From the IMG/VR virus record IMGVR_UViG_2563366842_000009: a stretch of 29,651 nucleotides of DNA. One strand, written 5' to 3'. The notes under the pieces were generated by a model. The model saw only the letters and a list, made by a program, of their open reading frames with translations. It did not search any database and was not told the DNA's origin. The translations under genes and the position numbers were made by a program. Each line of letters starts with the position of its first letter. The first letter of the stretch is position 1. This DNA is from a virus. Lineage: Duplodnaviria; Heunggongvirae; Uroviricota; Caudoviricetes. Positions 1 to 29,651 of the stretch are shown here, piece after piece.

Positions 1-14
1 AACACGAGCAAACA

Positions 15-47
15 GATAAAAAAGGGCCAGCCAATTGGCCAGCCCTT
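15..47 (-). terminator. Near-palindromic hairpin (aagggccagccaattggccagccctt, 22..47) flanked by an A-run on the plus strand, i.e. a U-tract for minus-strand transcripts; candidate intrinsic terminator downstream of int or of a flanking host gene
   Basis: 11 of 13 stem positions pair when folded; aaaaaa immediately 5' on the plus strand. Confidence 0.4.
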
Positions 48-171
48 CTTAACAGGATGTCGCTTAAGCGAAACCTTAGTTAAGACGCTCCTATTAACAC
101 CCCATACCAAACAAGCACTTATCATATAAAACAACTAGTTAAAGTAATTTTTAATGCAATGAATTGCAGTG

Positions 172-1221
172 CTATGAAACCTCTGCCGCCACATTGTCGC
201 CAACATACAGCGATAACGGATTGAGGGTGACAGCTTGTTCAAGGTGGTCAGGAGCAAAGTGTGCATACTTCATTGTTTCTCGAATATTGGCATGCCCGAG
301 AATTTTCTGCAGCACCAGTATATTCCCGCCGTTCATCATAAAATGTGCACCAAAAGTATGACGCAAAACGTGCGTCTTCTGCCCTTCCGTCAATTCAATA
401 TTCGTTAGTTTGAGCATCTTTTTAAACTCCTGATAGCAGGGTTTAAACATTCTGCCTTGACGTTCGGACAACTCGTCGTACAGCCATTTAGGGATAGGAA
501 CTGTGCGATTCTTCTTACCTTTGGTTTTGGTGAACGTCAGTTTATATGGAGAAAGTTGCGGGCGGGTCAATCTCTCCGCTTCCCCCCATCGAGCGCCGGT
601 TGCAAGGCACACCTTAACAATCATGGTGAGGTCTTCTTTGCCGTATTGCTCGCAGGCTCGAAACAGCTCAGGGAGTTGAGACAAAGTCAGCCATGACATT
701 TCTTTCTCAGCTTCTTTGAATACTCGGATCCCATCAAGTGGATTGGGTAGGCTCCATTCCCCTAACCGGCGGAGCTCATTAAACACTGCTTCTAGGTATT
801 GTTGTTCGCGATTGACGGTTATAGGTTTGGCGATCCATTTCGAGGGGTCTTTATGATAACCATTGTCTATTTCACCACGTAATCGACGGTCACGATAATG
901 AGCCCAGTCTTTCGCGGTAAGGCGAGATGCAATCGGGTCGCCAAGTCCATTACATACGATTTGAAGCTTTGCAAACCTCGACTTACTGGCGACTAACGCT
1001 TGACCGTGCAAATTGTGCCAAAGCTGAATAATCTCGCTTAAGCGTCGGCGGTCTTCTTTCTTGCCGAGCCACGGCTTATCTTCACTCTCGCTTTTGGTAA
1101 ATGCTTCGAATGCCTCGGCCTCACCTTTGGTATTGAATTGCCGACGTATACGCCGCCCTTCTCTACCATTTGGATAGAGCTCGCATAACCATTTGCCATT
1201 TTTTTGCTTACTTACAGTCAT
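172..1221 (-). CDS. int: Phage integrase, tyrosine recombinase (P2/186 Int family)
   Basis: 349-aa ORF at the prophage end adjacent to the repressor; C-terminal catalytic region with LRHTFGAHF, LGH and a Tyr-containing tail typical of tyrosine recombinases. Confidence 0.9.
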   Translation of the reverse strand: MTVSKQKNGKWLCELYPNGREGRRIRRQFNTKGEAEAFEAFTKSESEDKPWLGKKEDRRRLSEIIQLWHNLHGQALVASKSRFAKLQIVCNGLGDPIASRLTAKDWAHYRDRRLRGEIDNGYHKDPSKWIAKPITVNREQQYLEAVFNELRRLGEWSLPNPLDGIRVFKEAEKEMSWLTLSQLPELFRACEQYGKEDLTMIVKVCLATGARWGEAERLTRPQLSPYKLTFTKTKGKKNRTVPIPKWLYDELSERQGRMFKPCYQEFKKMLKLTNIELTEGQKTHVLRHTFGAHFMMNGGNILVLQKILGHANIRETMKYAHFAPDHLEQAVTLNPLSLYVGDNVAAEVS

Positions 1222-1243
1222 AATGTCACCGAAGCAACTCTAA

Positions 1244-1582
1244 TTATTCGCAAAGTGCTGTTGCGGCATCCATTACAGGATCCAAAGGAATTTTTACACC
1301 TGCATACTCTGGACTGTCTTTCCAAACAGCATCAATATTGCTCCCCTCAAGCTTTCCAGACTTTACTCCATCAATAGCAAAACCATTTAATGGGTATCGG
1401 TCATCAGTTGCTTTGTCGTACACAAAGGCATACTTACCGTTGACGCAAGACACCGTAGCTTTTTCAAAAGTTAACGGCCAATCATCACCAAACTTAGTGC
1501 CGTCTAAATCCTGTGTTTTTTCAGAGGCTAAGGAGCCAAAAGAAAAGGTAAGAAGCATAGCTAAAAAGAGTTTACGTTTCAT
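1244..1582 (-). CDS. Small secreted (signal-peptide) protein, cargo/moron between cI and int; function unknown
   Basis: Start taken at the internal Met (MKRKLFLAMLLTFSFGSLA|SE...) with an AAGGGA RBS 8 nt after the repressor stop; the track ORF extends to 1654 but that overlaps the repressor 3' end. Hydrophobic N-terminal signal peptide with an SLA cleavage-like site, no lipobox Cys. Local GC is visibly lower than the backbone. Confidence 0.6.
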   Translation of the reverse strand: MKRKLFLAMLLTFSFGSLASEKTQDLDGTKFGDDWPLTFEKATVSCVNGKYAFVYDKATDDRYPLNGFAIDGVKSGKLEGSNIDAVWKDSPEYAGVKIPLDPVMDAATALCE

Positions 1583-1590
1583 AATTTCCC

Positions 1591-2451
1591 TTATACGTGT
1601 TTTTCCAATGTGAAAACTACAACCCCGGCAGGCGTAATGTCGGTAATGTTGCATTCAAACTCAGCAGACTTATTTGACAACCTGACTTTTCCACCAGGTA
1701 AACGAATTACATCAAAAACATCAAGAGCGCCGTCGATATCAATTAACCAGCGGCCATTACTTATATTCGAAGCAGAACAGTCGACAAGCCAAGAGGCGGC
1801 CACACCGTCAACAAAAATCAATTCCCCTGAGTTAGAAGGAATCATTGAGGGGTCAGGCTGCCACGTTCCTGCGTCCTTAAGCTCACCAGATTCGAGGCGA
1901 GATTTTTTAATAGAAAAACCAGATGTGACACCTTCCCTGTTAGCTCGCATTTGCCCCTTGCCTGTTGCTAACCATTCCAGTGACGTATCGGTATCAAGAG
2001 CGCATGTAACAACAACATCACCGGGGAAAAAATCTCGCCTTACCCATGTGCTAATTGTGCCAGAGGAAATGCCGAGCAAATCACCAAGCTCCTTTTGCAT
2101 GGTAAAGCCGTACGCATCAAGAATCCTACGCAAAACGGTTTTACCACCATTCGTCATAATCTCGTCATAAAGCTCTTTGCCTTTTAACTTGCAACCGGCA
2201 CGCTCGCAATTTGCATTTGCAAGCTCTCCATTTACAAGCCAATTGATATCAGCTCCCGTGTCAAGACAACACCTAACTATGACGTTGCCAGGTATTGCAT
2301 CACGCTGAACCCAGCCGCTAACGCTGTGTTTAGCGATACCTAGCAGGTCAGCCAAATCCTTTTGCATCTTGACGCCATAGGCTGACATTAAGCGTTCCAA
2401 TACGCCGTTCGTTGCACTAACACGCCACTGAACATCAAGCTCAGAACTCAT
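1591..2451 (-). CDS. cI: CI-type immunity repressor (186 CI family) with a tandemly duplicated N-terminal HTH domain
   Basis: 286 aa. Two adjacent segments (about aa 16-78 and 106-166) are clearly paralogous (VLERLMSAYGVKMQKDLADLLGIAKHSVSGWVQRDAIPGNVIVRCCLDTGADINWLVNGE vs VLRRILDAYGFTMQKELGDLLGISSGTISTWVRRDFFPGDVVVTCALDTDTSLEWLATGK). The C-terminal part resembles the 186 CI C-terminal domain as I recall it (...WLVDI.GA......LPG.K......FEC...). Divergent from the Apl-like gene, upstream of int as in 186. Confidence 0.8.
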   Translation of the reverse strand: MSSELDVQWRVSATNGVLERLMSAYGVKMQKDLADLLGIAKHSVSGWVQRDAIPGNVIVRCCLDTGADINWLVNGELANANCERAGCKLKGKELYDEIMTNGGKTVLRRILDAYGFTMQKELGDLLGISSGTISTWVRRDFFPGDVVVTCALDTDTSLEWLATGKGQMRANREGVTSGFSIKKSRLESGELKDAGTWQPDPSMIPSNSGELIFVDGVAASWLVDCSASNISNGRWLIDIDGALDVFDVIRLPGGKVRLSNKSAEFECNITDITPAGVVVFTLEKHV

Positions 2452-2480
2452 AAAAACCCCTATAGATAATTTTATGGGTG

Positions 2481-2509
2481 TTTACAGAAAACTTTTTACG
2501 ATCTATAGT
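2481..2509 (+). promoter_or_regulatory. Candidate lytic promoter (pR analogue): -35 TTTACA (2481..2486), 17-bp spacer, -10 TATAGT (2504..2509)
   Basis: Sigma70-like hexamers with canonical spacing in the cI/apl divergent intergenic region, about 65 nt upstream of the ATG at 2573, which has an AGGAG RBS. Confidence 0.5.
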
Positions 2510-2572
2510 GGCGTTCATCGACCAAGATGCACACCACTGCACTACATTTCAAACAACAGGAGATAATGCGAT

Positions 2573-2926
2573 ATGTCAGATGCAAAATCAATCCCGCTGC
2601 ATGACACACAAAACTTACAAAATCAAACTGTATTGCTAGACGCTGGTCAGTTCAACGCGCTTGTAACCATGATGCAGCTATCCATGCAAAACATGATTCG
2701 TACAGCGATGTTAGACACCATGTCAGTAAAAGACTTCGCCGCCGCCCGTGGCGTTAGCGAGCGTCTGGTCTGGCAATGGATTGATGAGGGCGTCCTTCTC
2801 AAAGCTCCCACCAAAGATGTTACCAGCAAAGAAAAAGCCGCTAAGCGTAGCCGCACCCTTATCAACGTCAAAGCATGGCGTGACAAACTGACCCAGCAAG
2901 CTATCGATTGCCGTTATATCAACTAA
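2573..2926 (+). CDS. Apl/Cox-like small DNA-binding regulator/excisionase (putative)
   Basis: First gene of the rightward early operon, divergent from cI, the position occupied by apl in 186 and cox in P2. Contains an HTH-like segment (VKDFAAARGVSERLVWQWIDEG). No close recalled match, so assignment rests on position. Confidence 0.5.
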   Translation: MSDAKSIPLHDTQNLQNQTVLLDAGQFNALVTMMQLSMQNMIRTAMLDTMSVKDFAAARGVSERLVWQWIDEGVLLKAPTKDVTSKEKAAKRSRTLINVKAWRDKLTQQAIDCRYIN

Positions 2927-2976
2927 CAGTCATCGCTTAACTGAACTTGATTTTGCAAGTTAAAGGGAGTTACAGC

Positions 2977-3486
2977 ATGTTAGATTTTCGTGTTTCGTCA
3001 CATGCGCACTTTGACGAGGCCTGCAGAAAATTCGCAGCTACTCATAACGTGAAAGAACTAGCGAATAAAGCCGGAATCAAGCCGCATACGCTTTACAACA
3101 AACTCAACCCAGAACAGCCGCACCAGTTAACGCCGCGTGAAATCTGGACACTGACAGACCTGACCGAAGACTCGACTCTCGTCGATGGTTTTCTGGCGCA
3201 GATCCATTGTCTGCCATGCGTACCGGTCAACGAGCTGGCAAAAGAGAAATTGCAATCCTACGTCATGCACGCAATGAGTGAACTAGGCGAACTGGCAAGC
3301 GGTGCAGTTTCCGGCGACCGCCTCACGCCAGCCAAAAAACAAAACATGATTGCTAGCGTAAATGCGGGGATTCGCATGTTGTCATTATCGGCAATGGCGC
3401 TGCATGCACGCCTGCAGACTAATCCCGCTATGTCGAGCGTAGTCGATACTATGAGCGGTATTGGCGCATCGTTTGGTCTGATTTGA
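2977..3486 (+). CDS. cII: CII-like lysogeny-establishment transcriptional activator (186 CII family)
   Basis: Start chosen at ATG 2977 with AAGGGAG RBS, giving 169 aa. Strong similarity to 186 CII as recalled (LNPEQPHQ.TP, TDLTEDSTLVDGFLAQIHCLPCVPVNELAK, C-terminal NPAMSSVVDTMSGIGASFGLI). Confidence 0.85.
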   Translation: MLDFRVSSHAHFDEACRKFAATHNVKELANKAGIKPHTLYNKLNPEQPHQLTPREIWTLTDLTEDSTLVDGFLAQIHCLPCVPVNELAKEKLQSYVMHAMSELGELASGAVSGDRLTPAKKQNMIASVNAGIRMLSLSAMALHARLQTNPAMSSVVDTMSGIGASFGLI

Positions 3487-3493
3487 GGTGCGT

Positions 3494-3721
3494 ATGCTGA
3501 AAAGTGAACCGTCATTCGCGTCTCTGCTCGTTAAGCAAAGCCCCGGCATGCATTACGGCCACGGCTGGATCGCAGGTAAGGACGGCAAGCGCTGGCACCC
3601 GTGCCGCTCACAGTCCGAATTATTAAAAGGGCTGAAAACAAAGTCGCCGAAATCGTCAGGTTTTTTAATTATTCGTATTGTCCACTTTGTAATTAAAGGA
3701 GTGAAACATGTCACGCGATGA
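3494..3721 (+). CDS. Hypothetical early protein
   Basis: ORF immediately after cII with GAGGTG-like RBS before ATG 3494; the 3' part runs into an AT-rich island, so the true extent is uncertain. Confidence 0.35.
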   Translation: MLKSEPSFASLLVKQSPGMHYGHGWIAGKDGKRWHPCRSQSELLKGLKTKSPKSSGFLIIRIVHFVIKGVKHVTR

Positions 3722-3908
3722 ATTAAGAATTGTTTTGGGTGCCATGATTCCAAATATGGAGGAAGGTTTTGAAATTAAAACCCGCGACGGCGCAATACTT
3801 CGCGTTGACCCTGAGTGGGAGTGCTGCAAAGAATTTAAGGATGGATTAAAAGCCGAAATCATCAAGCAGTTAAAAAGCAAGCCTGCTGTTGTATTTGGAT
3901 ATAGTTAA
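3708..3908 (+). CDS. Hypothetical small protein (66 aa) in a low-GC island
   Basis: Strong RBS (AAAGGAG) 6 nt before ATG 3708. Surrounding DNA (about 3640..3960) is markedly AT-rich and bounded by ttaattaattaa, suggesting inserted cargo. Confidence 0.5.
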   Translation: MSRDELRIVLGAMIPNMEEGFEIKTRDGAILRVDPEWECCKEFKDGLKAEIIKQLKSKPAVVFGYS

Positions 3909-3974
3909 TTAATTAAACGTAATTACTTGGCGTAAACCCGCCGGGCATTCTTTTGCCAAAAATCAGGAGGATAT

Positions 3975-4208
3975 ATGAGTCGAACTATTTATTTATCAAC
4001 GCCGAGTAGTGCTGGCGACCACGTGCTGGAGTCTTTGTTTAAAGAAGCCAAAAAAGAAGAGCGCAAAGACCGCGCTCTCGCCGTTTCAATCCGTCTCGAA
4101 GCTCTGGCCGTTCACATTACCAATTCAGATATGACCGGCAAAGAAGCGGCCGAACTGTTGCGCCGTGAAGCAGCCCGCTTTGAGAACGAGTCACAGGAGC
4201 TGCACTAA
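3975..4208 (+). CDS. Hypothetical early protein (77 aa)
   Basis: AGGAGG RBS before ATG 3975; stop overlaps the next start (TAATG), indicating translational coupling. Confidence 0.6.
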   Translation: MSRTIYLSTPSSAGDHVLESLFKEAKKEERKDRALAVSIRLEALAVHITNSDMTGKEAAELLRREAARFENESQELH

Positions 4209-4429
4209 TGGCCGACGCAATTGATTTAGCACAACAGCGTGAGCAGGAAGACCGCGAGCGCCACATCAGCAACGCGCGCAGCCGTATCGCTGCGCCCTCT
4301 CGCTTCCTCTGCGAAGAATGTGACGCACCAATCCCGGAAGCTCGCCGCATTGCGATTCCGGGCGTGGCCTTTTGCGTGACATATCAGCAAATCGCGGAGC
4401 TCAAACACAAACACTACAGGGGCGTTTAA
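4208..4429 (+). CDS. TraR/DksA-family zinc-finger protein (P2 Orf82-like)
   Basis: 73 aa with CEEC...FCVT Cys motif and an N-terminal acidic coiled region; similar small proteins are conserved in P2-like early operons (recalled). Confidence 0.6.
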   Translation: MADAIDLAQQREQEDRERHISNARSRIAAPSRFLCEECDAPIPEARRIAIPGVAFCVTYQQIAELKHKHYRGV

Positions 4430-4819
4430 ATGGTTAATAAACACTTAACAGACAAGCGCGCGCGTCTGCGCAGGGCCGCTCAAGACTACCAATCTACATT
4501 ATCGTGGTATCAAGAAAACCTCGATAGTCCAAATGCAGAACAGGATTGCGATGAGGCAACCGCGGCATTTAAGCGCGAAATCGGCCATCGAGAGACAGAC
4601 ATTATTGCTGACCTGTTGGATGAAATAGACGAGCTCCGGGAATACCGAAAAGCTCGCATTGTTCCTGATGGCTGGATAGCAGTACCTTCGGAGCCTACTG
4701 GCGATATGCTGGCGCGAATCAAGCTTTCTGATATTTGGACAACCGAAGCGCTAACCACCAGATACAAAGACATGCTACGCGCCGCCCCTCGCGCGCCATA
4801 TGAGGGGATAAACAAATGA
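4430..4819 (+). CDS. Hypothetical early protein (129 aa)
   Basis: Translationally coupled ORF in the early operon. Confidence 0.55.
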   Translation: MVNKHLTDKRARLRRAAQDYQSTLSWYQENLDSPNAEQDCDEATAAFKREIGHRETDIIADLLDEIDELREYRKARIVPDGWIAVPSEPTGDMLARIKLSDIWTTEALTTRYKDMLRAAPRAPYEGINK

Positions 4820-5088
4820 GCATTAATATCAGTATTGGCGACAAATGGGTTATTACCAGCGACCAGTATCAATTCATCCTGAATGAAAAGAAGGTCGTTA
4901 AGTCTGGTAAAAAAGCTGGCGAGGAATGGCTCGACACCATCGGTTATTACCCCAAGATTAACCAGCTTATTTCCGGGCTGATTCATCATCATATTCAGCA
5001 GTCATCAATTACCACGCTTGACGCAATGGCATCTGAAATTGAGCGTATCGGAGAAATGTGCGCCTCCTCTATCAAGGCGGCGACATGA
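4816..5088 (+). CDS. Hypothetical early protein (90 aa)
   Basis: ATGA overlap with the preceding ORF; coupled early-operon position. Confidence 0.55.
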   Translation: MSINISIGDKWVITSDQYQFILNEKKVVKSGKKAGEEWLDTIGYYPKINQLISGLIHHHIQQSSITTLDAMASEIERIGEMCASSIKAAT

Positions 5089-7890: not shown

Positions 7891-8124
7891 ATGAGAATCA
7901 ATATCACGTTGGATAAAGAGCAAAAAATTAGTCAGGCAACGTTGGATGCACTAGAGGCTGAGCTGTACCGCAATCTTCAACCTATTTACCCAAAGACTGC
8001 TATCCGCATTCGCAAGGGCTCCGCAAATGGTGTTGAGCTAAGCGGTTTGAAACTGGACGAAGATAAAAAACGAGTAATGGAAATCATGCAGCAAGTATGG
8101 GAAGACGATAGCTGGCTGCATTAA
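7891..8124 (+). CDS. DinI-family protein (Tum C-terminal-like module)
   Basis: 77 aa aligning along its length with E. coli DinI as recalled (MRI.[IV]T..K......A.DAL..EL.R......P......R.......LS........K.R..EI.Q..WE....W); low-GC region. Confidence 0.8.
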   Translation: MRINITLDKEQKISQATLDALEAELYRNLQPIYPKTAIRIRKGSANGVELSGLKLDEDKKRVMEIMQQVWEDDSWLH

Positions 8125-8197: not shown

Positions 8198-9136
8198 TTA
8201 ATTTAGTTTTAATGAATGGTACTCAACCGAGTCGACCTTAGATTTGATATATGTACAATCATTTACAGAGAGTAATGCTGCTAGTAAGCGACATACCAGA
8301 GCCTGCATTTCTCGTAATATATCATCACCATATTGACCGCCATTAACACTGGAGAAACCAAGCGGTTGACCATAGAAAATAGCCTCATGAAAATTATCAT
8401 TGCGGATGGTTGTAATATTTTTTTTGCCTGTTACCCATGAAGGACGTGGTATGCCATAGGTTTCGCACAGCCACTTTAACCGCCTGGAATGATTTAACGT
8501 TTTTTCAGGGCACTTGTTTTTTTCTGCCCACGCTAAAGCAAAGCAACCATCCAATGCCATATAAAGATAATGGAACTTTTCAAATGAAAGGTATTGTGGG
8601 TTGTGAGATAAAAATAGTGCGTGCACCACTGCCGCTATTTTTATTGGTGATTTCTCTTTTTTTTGCTCGCTAGATATGTAATTGAGAGCCAATTCTATGA
8701 TTGCTTTTTCAGAGCATCTGCCGAGAGTAAAGTCTGTTAACTTAGCAGGCTTGATGGGGGTTGCATCTAAAAAACCAGCTTCGGTGGTTGTTAATCTCAT
8801 CCCCCTGAAAAAAGACAGGCACCACACAACAAAGTTGAGAGTTTCTAGCGAGGATGTATTTTTTAATTTTAGTATGTGCGTTTTTGGTAATCCGAATACT
8901 CGGCAACTATAAGGCATTGTGGATATGCCGCCATTAAAGTTATATATCTCTTGGTTTCCGGGGTATATCCAGCCATTAACAACATTTTTGTCATTGTTAA
9001 CGCGCTCTACTTTCTCAGCGAGGCCGGGTAAAGTAAGTAAAGAAAAATTTTCAGTCTCAATGTTAACTTCTACTGGATAGTATCCAAACTCAGATCCAAT
9101 CTCATCGGGCTGCTGTTCGGTAACTTCACCTTGCAT
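8198..9136 (-). CDS. Orphan 312-aa protein in the A-cos accessory hotspot; candidate anti-phage defence or abortive-infection protein, function unknown
   Basis: Good RBS (GGAG 6 nt before ATG at 9136); low GC relative to the phage backbone; no signal peptide or obvious transmembrane segment; occupies the old/tin position of P2. Contains an R-N-x-x-x-H motif (RNDNFH, 8387..8404), which is only weak evidence for a HEPN-like RNase. Confidence 0.7.
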   Translation of the reverse strand: MQGEVTEQQPDEIGSEFGYYPVEVNIETENFSLLTLPGLAEKVERVNNDKNVVNGWIYPGNQEIYNFNGGISTMPYSCRVFGLPKTHILKLKNTSSLETLNFVVWCLSFFRGMRLTTTEAGFLDATPIKPAKLTDFTLGRCSEKAIIELALNYISSEQKKEKSPIKIAAVVHALFLSHNPQYLSFEKFHYLYMALDGCFALAWAEKNKCPEKTLNHSRRLKWLCETYGIPRPSWVTGKKNITTIRNDNFHEAIFYGQPLGFSSVNGGQYGDDILREMQALVCRLLAALLSVNDCTYIKSKVDSVEYHSLKLN

Positions 9137-9569: not shown

Positions 9570-10616
9570 TTATTCCGGGTTATCGAGGGTGTACTCTTTG
9601 AACCTGATGACCTCCATGCCGAGCCAGTCGTTTACCTCCCTGAACCTGTCCTGCAGCGGCGACAGCTCGTTACGCACAAATACCTTTGCCACCTTCTCAA
9701 CGTCACCGAGCGAGCCGATATTCTCGGGCTTACCGCCCATTAGCTGGAAAGGTACGCGGTGCGCATCCATCAGGTCGGCGGCACTGGCTTTCTTGATATT
9801 GAAAAAGTCATCCTTTGTGGCGACCTCGCTCAGTGGCACGATTTTTATGCCGTCCGGTTTTCCACCGGGGGCGTAGAAAAACAGGTTCTTAAAGTTGCCG
9901 AGCCCTTTCGAGTTGCGCATCGCCTCGCGTAGTGATTCGACGTCGGTCGCACTCTGCGCCGGGTCGGTTACATACATGATGTAACCCGCGTGCGCGCCGT
10001 TCTGGTAATACTTGCGGCGGAACAGCGTTGCGGATTCATTCAGCCAGGCAGAATTAAGCGCGCTGAGATATTCCGGCAGGCCGTAAATCTCCTGATTAAT
10101 GTCAGGCTCCAGCAGGTGAAACACGGTATCAGGCGCGAACTCATGCGGCTGAGTGAAGTTTTCCACAAACCAGAAAATTGAATCATCAACCCCACGGCGG
10201 GTGTATTTTGCTGGTGATGCCAGCAACTTGATTAACTGGCCGGTGACGCTGTGGCGCTGCTCAAGAAAAGCGTTGCCGAAGACCAGATAGTCGAGCGCAA
10301 AACGGCTGAAATCCTGACGGGACAGCAGCGGGTGCGGAATGTAGGTGCTCGCGAGCACGTTGCGTTTAACGTAAATCGGTGAGCTGTGATGCACGGCAGA
10401 GCGCAGGCTCTTTGCCAGCCCGGAAAAGCTGACCGGCGGCTCGTACCATTTGCCGTTACTGATGCACTCGACATAATCCAGAATGTCGCGCTTATCGAGC
10501 ACCGGAACTGGCTCACCGAAGGTGAACGCTTCCATTTTTTGCGGTGCGCTGGCTTTCAGTTGCTGTGGTGCGCGTGTTTTCTGCGCGGCGGCTTTGCGGG
10601 ATTTTTGCTTACCCAT
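9570..10616 (-). CDS. Q: Portal protein (P2 gpQ family)
   Basis: 348 aa; extensive recalled similarity to P2 Q (MEAFTFGEPVPVLD.RDILDYVECISNG.WYEPPVSF.GLAKSLR.AVHHSSPIYVKRN.LAST...). Start overlaps the stop of P. Confidence 0.95.
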   Translation of the reverse strand: MGKQKSRKAAAQKTRAPQQLKASAPQKMEAFTFGEPVPVLDKRDILDYVECISNGKWYEPPVSFSGLAKSLRSAVHHSSPIYVKRNVLASTYIPHPLLSRQDFSRFALDYLVFGNAFLEQRHSVTGQLIKLLASPAKYTRRGVDDSIFWFVENFTQPHEFAPDTVFHLLEPDINQEIYGLPEYLSALNSAWLNESATLFRRKYYQNGAHAGYIMYVTDPAQSATDVESLREAMRNSKGLGNFKNLFFYAPGGKPDGIKIVPLSEVATKDDFFNIKKASAADLMDAHRVPFQLMGGKPENIGSLGDVEKVAKVFVRNELSPLQDRFREVNDWLGMEVIRFKEYTLDNPE

Positions 10617-28485: not shown

Positions 28486-29651
28486 TGACGGGCATGACCA
28501 TTGACGCCGGGGCAAGCCTTGCACCGGCATTTATGCTGACACTGAACAGCCAGGACATTACCAGCAATTTTAGTGACCGGTTGATTTCTCTCACTATGAC
28601 CGACAACCGGGGTTTTGAAGCTGACCAGCTAGACATTGAGCTCGACGATACTGACGGCAAAGTCGAGTTACCACTGCGCGGCGCGGTGCTGACGCTGTGG
28701 CTTGGCTGGCAGGGTTCGGCACTTCTGAATAAGGGCGATTTCACGGTTGATGAGATTGAGCACCGAGGCGCGCCTGATACGCTGACCATTCGTGCGCGTA
28801 GCGCAGATTTTCGCGGAACACTCAATTCACGGCGTGAGGAATCATGGCACGACACCACTCTCGGTGAGCTGGTCAGCGCCATCGCAAAACGCAATAAACT
28901 GACGGCCAGCGTCGCGGATTCGCTGAAAAAAATCCCGGTACCGCATATTGACCAGTCGCAGGAGTCCGACGCAGTATTTTTGACCAGACTGGCTGAGCGC
29001 AACGGGGCGGCAGTATCAGTGAAAGCGGGGAAATTGCTGTTTCTGAAAGCCGGTAGCGCAGTGACGGCCAGCGGTAAACCCGTCCCACAAATGACACTGA
29101 CCCGCGGTGATGGTGACCGTCATCAGTTTGCCATTGCCGACCGTGGGGCTTATACCGGCGTAACGGCAAAATGGTTGCACACCAAAGACCCTAAGCCGCA
29201 AAAGCAAAAGGTAACGCTGAAACGTAAACCAAAAGAGAAGCACCTGCGCGCACTGGAACACCCGAAAGCAAAGCCGGTCAGCAAAAAGACAAAAGCCAAA
29301 AAAGAGCAGGAAGCGCGCGAGGGTGAGTATATGGCCGGTGAGGCTGATAACGTGCTGGCGCTGACGACGGTCTACGCTTCAAAGGCTCAGGCGATGCGAG
29401 CAGCTCAGGCTAAGTGGGATAAGTTGCAGCGAGGCGTTGCGGAGTTTTCAATTACGCTGGCGCTCGGTCGAGCTGATTTATTCCCTGAGACACCAGTGCG
29501 CGTGTCGGGCTTTAAGCGTGTCATAGATGAGCAGGCATGGTTAATCAGTAAGGTAACTCACAATCTGAATAATAATGGATTCACGACGGGCTTAGAGCTT
29601 GAGGTTAAGCTCTCCGATGTGGAGTACAGCTCAGAGGAAAGCGAAAGCTGA
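28482..29651 (+). CDS. D: Tail protein D (late tail gene, P2 gpD family)
   Basis: 389 aa, complete, with the stop codon forming the last 3 nt of the window; contains a Lys-rich segment (KPKPQKQKVTLKRKPKEKH...). Confidence 0.85.
   Translation: MMTGMTIDAGASLAPAFMLTLNSQDITSNFSDRLISLTMTDNRGFEADQLDIELDDTDGKVELPLRGAVLTLWLGWQGSALLNKGDFTVDEIEHRGAPDTLTIRARSADFRGTLNSRREESWHDTTLGELVSAIAKRNKLTASVADSLKKIPVPHIDQSQESDAVFLTRLAERNGAAVSVKAGKLLFLKAGSAVTASGKPVPQMTLTRGDGDRHQFAIADRGAYTGVTAKWLHTKDPKPQKQKVTLKRKPKEKHLRALEHPKAKPVSKKTKAKKEQEAREGEYMAGEADNVLALTTVYASKAQAMRAAQAKWDKLQRGVAEFSITLALGRADLFPETPVRVSGFKRVIDEQAWLISKVTHNLNNNGFTTGLELEVKLSDVEYSSEESES

Follow-up and report, generated by a model that had tools for sequence, protein, structure and literature searches.

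A predicted attachment site of PSP3/186-like prophages at the 3′ end of the ribosomal protein gene rplS

The prophage of phage P2 has the layout attL–int–…–D–ogr–attR, and the heterobivalent P2 integrase depends on IHF and on Cox. In a lambda-type attL, the core is accompanied by a phage-side IHF site and arm-type Int repeats, and excision needs a directionality factor. A 2011 survey of P2-like integrases reports that P2-type integrases mostly insert between genes, that tRNA genes, with long blocks of identity, are the usual target of 186-type integrases and that of coliphage 186 as well, and that the arm-repeat consensus is tgccGCCActt in 186-type phages and tgTGGaCa in P2-type phages (PMC3448106). 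The attB of coliphage 186 lies in a tRNA-Ile gene. Streptococcal GBSInt3-type prophages occupy the 3′ end of rplS, with the core GATTCCGGCAGGGGACAT. For PsP3, the host-location and integration-site columns are blank in the table of Nilsson et al. (2011), and the searchable literature yielded no account of phage attachment at rplS in enterobacteria or of where PSP3 integrates.

The stretch of DNA analysed here (29,651 nt, IMG/VR record IMGVR_UViG_2563366842_000009; hereafter the window) carries a P2-family prophage: int on the minus strand, a DUF2511 gene, a gene for a CI-type repressor, early genes, gpA, portal, terminase, head and tail genes and gpD, which ends exactly at 29651. The order is that of P2. 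The stop codon of int occupies 172..174, and its product has the domains of a tyrosine integrase (Pfam Int_N, E=1.2e-30; Phage_integrase, E=2.5e-19). As in coliphage 186, a 186-type tyrosine integrase gene stands by a gene for a CI-type repressor (ORF 1591..2451, minus strand; Phage_CI_repr, E=1e-52; Phage_CI_C, E=2e-20), in contrast to the C-type repressor of P2. DNA identity in the int region to phages PSP3, SEN1 and SW9 is ~79–88% (window 1..1300), and int DNA similarity to 186-type Yersinia phages is only ~68% over ~220 nt. Our analysis indicates, with high confidence, that the left end of the window is the attL of a ~30.0-kb PSP3/186-like (Eganvirus) prophage in the 3′ end of rplS (Table 1).

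Table 1. Features of the attachment region. Positions refer to the window, or to the contig named by an L number.
Feature	Position	Strand	Basis or remark
Host yfiB–rplS intergenic spacer, bacterial arm of attL	1..75		E. coli genome comparison
Native intrinsic terminator of rplS (trmD operon)	19..50	−	Terminator scan and folding; function predicted
attL core TTAGTTAAGACGCTC, 15-bp direct repeat	76..90		Common to attL, attR, attB and attP
int-proximal phage arm of attL, non-coding	91..171		Variable 91..116, conserved ~117..165
Candidate IHF site AAACAACTAGTTA	129..141	+	One mismatch to the loose consensus WATCAANNNNTTR (pattern scan)
Two tandem putative arm-type Int repeats	184..191 TGCCGCCA, 195..202 TGTCGCCA	+	11 bp apart, in the int 3′ end
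int	172..1221	−	Tyrosine integrase, 186/PSP3 type, 349 aa
Candidate recombination directionality factor (Cox/Apl analogue)	2573..2926	+	117 aa, divergent from the CI-type repressor gene
Strong bidirectional phage terminator (predicted)	L008 5544..5570	both	Folding
attR copies in E. coli lysogens reading TCAGTTAAGACGCTC	L002 5690..5704; L098, L099 and L100 ~2491..2505		

Host DNA accounts for the first 90 positions of the window. Positions 1..90 were matched in every complete Escherichia coli genome compared (5426/5426) at 97–100% identity, and the match continued to 171 in only 68 of them; homology to host DNA goes no further than 90. In K-12 C600 the matched stretch falls between yfiB and rplS; in both K-12 C600 and ET490, yfiB ends one base before window position 1 and the minus-strand rplS begins, stop codon first, at the equivalent of 76..78. 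Because of the positions of yfiB and rplS in K-12 C600, we read 1..75 as the intergenic spacer and 76..90 as the end of rplS. On the minus strand, 76..90 reads GAG CGT CTT AAC TAA, that is E-R-L-N-stop, the last four codons and the stop codon of the gene for ribosomal protein L19. An attachment site of the tRNA or tmRNA type was considered and rejected: ARAGORN found no tRNA or tmRNA gene in the whole window, no Rfam match was found in 1..3000, and the core lies in the 3′ end of rplS.

The 15-mer at 76..90 has no second copy in the window, even with two mismatches allowed, which places attR outside the right end. Nor does any significant repeat of 1..171 occur elsewhere in the window, the longest recurring word being an 11-mer, at chance level. 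The right junction was read in contig L008, retrieved from Logan accession SRR640126 through an exact match to the gpD protein; this is an assembly distinct from that of the window and may come from another isolate. The first 5170 bases of L008 equal the last 5170 bases of the window with 0 mismatches, though in that region identity to complete E. coli genomes reaches 91.6% at best. Past the gpD stop codon, L008 carries the zinc-finger gene ogr (Pfam Ogr_Delta) with its terminator, three TGYCGCCA repeats, a bidirectional terminator, a copy of the core and rplS. This second copy of TTAGTTAAGACGCTC occupies L008 5609..5623 and is followed by an intact rplS-trmD-rimM-rpsP-ffh; in window-equivalent coordinates it begins 439 nt beyond the window end, giving an integrated unit of ~30,014 bp.

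The 15-mer is the sole sequence common to both junctions, and the adjoining bases differ on each side. When window 1..90 is joined to L008 from 5624 onward, the K-12 locus is rebuilt with five mismatches in 1590 bases. At attP, where the ogr/pag and int arms join, the free phages PSP3, SEN1 and SW9 have exactly this 15-mer; phages Midge and RCIP0057 have at this point a variant with one synonymous change in the Leu codon, TTAGTTCAGACGCTC, as in the Enterobacter-type rplS allele. By these comparisons the attL core is 76..90, and the left end of a PSP3/186-like prophage is in the last codons of rplS. The attP of the Salmonella Eganvirus phages PSP3, SEN1, SW9 and SI22 resembles the locus in core, int-proximal arm, arm repeats and the terminator on the ogr/pag side; the difference is that the window holds the integrated, attL form, in E. 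coli.

An earlier note on this DNA, made from the window alone, had put the int 3′ end at 172 and attL within 1..171, had seen no tRNA or tmRNA 3′ end there, and had regarded the core as undefinable and attR as lying beyond the window. The position of int, the absence of a tRNA or tmRNA end and the location of attR all agree with our results. The core does fall within 1..171, and the functional attL probably runs further; the core is indeed undefinable from the window taken alone, and became definable, as 76..90, once attB, attP and attR from outside were compared. The note had also suggested comparing an uninterrupted host locus and searching past 29651 through ogr for a direct repeat: the former comparison yielded the yfiB–rplS spacer and rplS end, and the latter, in L008, the 15-mer. 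A direct repeat elsewhere, which the note would have counted against its placement, did not appear in the window, where the 15-mer is single and other repeats reach 11 nt at most.

The window is cut at gene boundaries, starting after the yfiB stop codon and ending at the gpD stop codon, and several IMG/VR contigs begin at the identical offset from the core. Because of this cut, ogr, the ogr-side arm repeats, the phage terminator and attR (~75–455 nt further right) are absent, and 75 nt of host DNA are included. For annotation, the prophage should be taken to run from window position 76 to ~439 nt past the right end, and 1..75 should not count as phage.

The phage side of the junction, 91..171, is collinear with the attP of PSP3, SEN1, SW9, Midge and RCIP0057 and with attL sequences from lysogens of other genera. 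The block AAAACAnnTAGTTAA in it is conserved, in non-coding DNA, even in the Pectobacterium, Brenneria and Symbiopectobacterium relatives. Conservation of the non-coding DNA from ~117 to 146 extends to Pectobacteriaceae relatives, and this interval holds AAACAACTAGTTA, which is preceded by an A/T-rich tract and may be bound by IHF. The two tandem repeats at the end of int (window 181..204 reads ctcTGCCGCCAcattgTCGCCAac) fit the 186-type consensus tgccGCCActt, with GCCGCCA and not the P2-type tgTGGaCa. The window has 11 copies of the motif TGYCGCCA where 3.2 are expected, with 184/195 as the only adjacent pair, and three further copies in the same orientation stand in the ogr-proximal arm (L008 5492, 5513 and 5524), so that, as in coliphage 186, direct repeats of this type flank the core on both sides. 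The repeats are kept in relatives down to ~74% Int identity, where they read GCCGCCActtTGCCGCCAct, and those of distant relatives read ctGCCGCCActtTGCCGCCAct; because the pair at 184..202 lies in coding sequence, its conservation is not independent evidence. Since 186-type arm repeats lie inside the coding end of int, the functional attL probably spans ~76..205.

We conclude that the prophage very probably entered the 3′ end of rplS, an essential gene, through conservative site-specific recombination, with host DNA at 1..75, the common core at 76..90 and phage DNA from 91 rightwards. The tyrosine integrase would presumably be positioned by the 186-type repeats on both arms, the pair at 184..202 and the three beside ogr, and a bend at the conserved IHF-like site presumably helps to position it. 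Excision, by recombination of attL with attR, would require the Cox-like protein of 2573..2926. At attR, the phage supplies the identical last codons of rplS, in many relatives its own TGA stop codon, and a predicted strong bidirectional terminator of its own. The predicted arrangement of the core with a phage-side IHF-like site and arm-type repeats, and the presumed need for a directionality factor in excision, resemble a lambda-type attL.

The product of 2573..2926 is likely to be the directionality factor, a role suggested by a weak PHROG match to ‘Cox-like excisionase and repressor’ (E=6e-5); a Pfam search returned no family for it. Its PsP3 counterpart has been called a singleton in the literature, unlike other Cox/Apl proteins.

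The most durable of the alternatives accepts the junction as placed, and holds that the prophage is ‘grounded’, with attL a relic past recombining. In its favour, failure to be induced is frequent among the P2-like prophages of E. coli and is a property of P2 itself. We nevertheless consider a relic unlikely, given that the int ORF is intact, with its 349-aa product 100% identical in many genomes of three host types, that the 15-bp repeats are perfect, and that no damage is seen in the arm repeats or the IHF-like block, which match those of viable phage isolates. The site is presumed to be active.

The bacterial arm of attL contains a conspicuous hairpin, reported in the earlier note at 22..47 within the interval assigned to attL. 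The hairpin is real, with a full stem at 19..50; what did not hold is any assignment of it to the phage or to the attachment site, since every uninterrupted E. coli locus has it, with the exact sequence, between the convergent yfiB and rplS. Folded as minus-strand RNA, the stem has 14 pairs, two of them G.U, at −22.3 kcal/mol (z=−4.3; none of 200 shuffles as good), followed by the U-run UUUUUUAU. The plus-strand RNA is weaker, at −14.7 kcal/mol, with two C.A mismatches at the G.U positions. In uninterrupted genomes the hairpin stands 25–56 nt downstream of the rplS stop codon and has the G+C-rich stem-loop and U-run of an intrinsic terminator. From the stronger minus-strand fold we therefore take it to be mainly the terminator of rplS (trmD operon); it may be weakly bidirectional and also serve yfiB. 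In sum, the hairpin is a predicted host yfiB/rplS terminator outside the phage and the att core, and in the lysogen this native terminator would be displaced to a position downstream of int.

Elements that target palindromes or terminators offer a second alternative, in which recombination would take place at the hairpin (22..47), or the hairpin would belong to the phage end, and the junction would lie at or to the left of it. In its favour, when the free phages SW9, SI22 and SEN1 are aligned to the window by blastn, the alignments run left through the hairpin to positions 11–16. The alignments are carried that far because the phage arm is homologous to the host flank: the 80 nt of phage DNA beside the attR core align to the host flank 1..75 with a score of 15.5, against 4.5 ± 1.9 for shuffled controls, of which 0/2000 scored as high. 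What blastn extends through is diverged homology of the phage terminator arm to the host flank, gapped and matching at ~50–54 of 75–80 positions, and on reading the sequences we rejected an identity block of ~80 bp. Exact attP/attB identity is limited to 74..90. With the exact hairpin also found in every uninterrupted locus, a junction at the hairpin is very improbable, and we retain the core at 76..90.

The two remaining alternatives can be set aside with near certainty. Although the element has short flanking direct repeats, as would a transposase-like insertion with target-site duplication, the 15-mer is already present in free phage genomes at the arm junction and is single copy in the empty site, the adjacent gene encodes a tyrosine integrase, and many genera use the same site; because free phage and empty site have the core, as does each end of the prophage, conservative site-specific recombination and not duplication is indicated. 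That the prophage reaches left of position 1, with the true attL outside the window, which the earlier note had allowed for, could be entertained since the window begins only 75 nt from the core, but the stop codon of host yfiB immediately precedes position 1, and to the left of position 1 yfiB, dgcN, yfiR, yfiL and aroF follow in the order and sequence of prophage-free K-12, the left-hand genes being likewise as in K-12 in contig L014 (GCA_000351885.1, scaffold KB732889.1), which was found through an exact Int match and is identical to window 1..5000.

Comparison of lysogens narrows the position of the exchange within the core. In four of the five E. coli lysogens inspected (ET490, SF-468, TUM14697 and I4), the attR copy reads TCAGTTAAGACGCTC (TCAG); the attL of ET490, the only attL read among these four, has TTAG. 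Because the phage base at 77 remains on the attR side and attL has the host-type base there, the exchange must lie to the right of 77, within 78..90. In Int relatives of 72–80% identity, from Pectobacterium, Kosakonia, Pantoea, Franconibacter and Symbiopectobacterium, the attL has the phage-type base at the equivalent of 90, and identity is shared only up to position 89. Together these observations suggest an exchange region within 78..89, and by extension the present integrase would presumably act in the same interval. Inverted core-type Int sites could not be defined around the core; an AGCG(T)…(A)CGCT symmetry is spaced differently in attB and attP. Exact attP–attB identity amounts to 15 bp here, 13 bp for the ET490 prophage and 17 bp for PSP3, SEN1 and SW9 against K-12, a range of 13–17 bp against E. 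coli K-12 and S. houtenae; for SW9 it reaches 36 bp against the S. enterica flank of contig L009.

In the same four of five inspected E. coli lysogens, rplS ends in a phage-supplied TGA that replaces the native TAA. By its alignment to 1..75, the phage arm beside attR (L008 5530..5608), with its terminator, is homologous to the DNA that follows rplS in the host, though diverged from it. The native rplS flanks of Salmonella enterica, Pectobacterium and Brenneria match the window-type, SW9, Midge and RCIP0057 arms at 57–68 of 80 positions and the SEN1 and PSP3 arms at 54–61 of 80, while the match of the phage arm to the E. coli flank is lower, at ~50 of 75. This resemblance to Salmonella, Pectobacterium and Brenneria flanks hints at the host history of the phage lineage.

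Such a host-derived patch would let rplS keep its coding end and gain a terminator that would also shield ogr and gpD from antisense read-through. It is also conceivable, if doubtful, that lysogeny tunes the ribosomal operon by exchanging the rplS 3′ UTR and terminator, and often the stop codon (TAA to TGA), for a copy from another lineage. Were that so, with expression of L19 and the trmD operon or the stability of its mRNA altered, the phage homologue of the flank, from a Salmonella/Pectobacterium-like source, would be a ‘repair patch’ under selection, and its divergence would be a record of the past hosts of the phage. The locus illustrates how phages that target an essential gene bring a replacement 3′ end.

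Use of this site extends well beyond E. coli. The identical 349-aa Int is found at the end of rplS in three host backgrounds, namely E. coli, Salmonella enterica and a third flank type (contigs L012 and L015); the flank of the L009 type was assigned to Salmonella enterica by its similarity to S. houtenae and S. Kentucky records. In Salmonella, rplS (STM2673) is followed directly by yfiN, without yfiB, and attL there abuts yfiN/dgcN. Int relatives of at least 68% identity use the same core in about a dozen genera of the Enterobacterales: Escherichia, Enterobacter, Citrobacter, Yokenella, Kluyvera, Pectobacterium, Brenneria, Kosakonia, Pantoea, Franconibacter, Chimaeribacter and Symbiopectobacterium. 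The junction of core and int arm is carried by 32 IMG/VR contigs. In place of the rplS core, Int relatives at 58–62% identity (Rahnella, Acerihabitans, Martelella and Pantoea; L045..L050) are followed by a shared sequence beginning aaaaaagaccgaatacgattcctatattcggtc; these presumably use a different attachment site.

What is new here is the attachment site assigned to the PSP3 group, the 3′ end of rplS, in what is otherwise routine site-specific integration. The site is an exception to the tRNA-gene tendency of 186-type integrases: coliphage 186 uses a tRNA-Ile gene, whereas the present prophage uses the 3′ end of a protein-coding gene with an identity block of 13–17 bp. The streptococcal GBSInt3-type prophages share the same gene and the same end of it, but differ in unrelated hosts, in the core and in the type of integrase, and the streptococcal and enterobacterial use of rplS is convergence on a conserved essential gene, not homology. 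As the same core is present in about a dozen Enterobacterales genera, it is potentially useful as a broad-host, single-copy integration site.

A further observation concerns the variable ‘cargo’ slot of the prophage, between gpA/DinI (DinI at 7891..8124) and the portal gene (9570..10616), where an ORF of 312 aa lies on the minus strand at 8198..9136. In P2-like phages the equivalent slot often carries anti-phage defence genes. Searches of Pfam and PADLOC gave no match for this ORF, and its sole match was phrog_5937, of unknown function. Its GC content is 0.39–0.40, against 0.52–0.57 in its neighbours.
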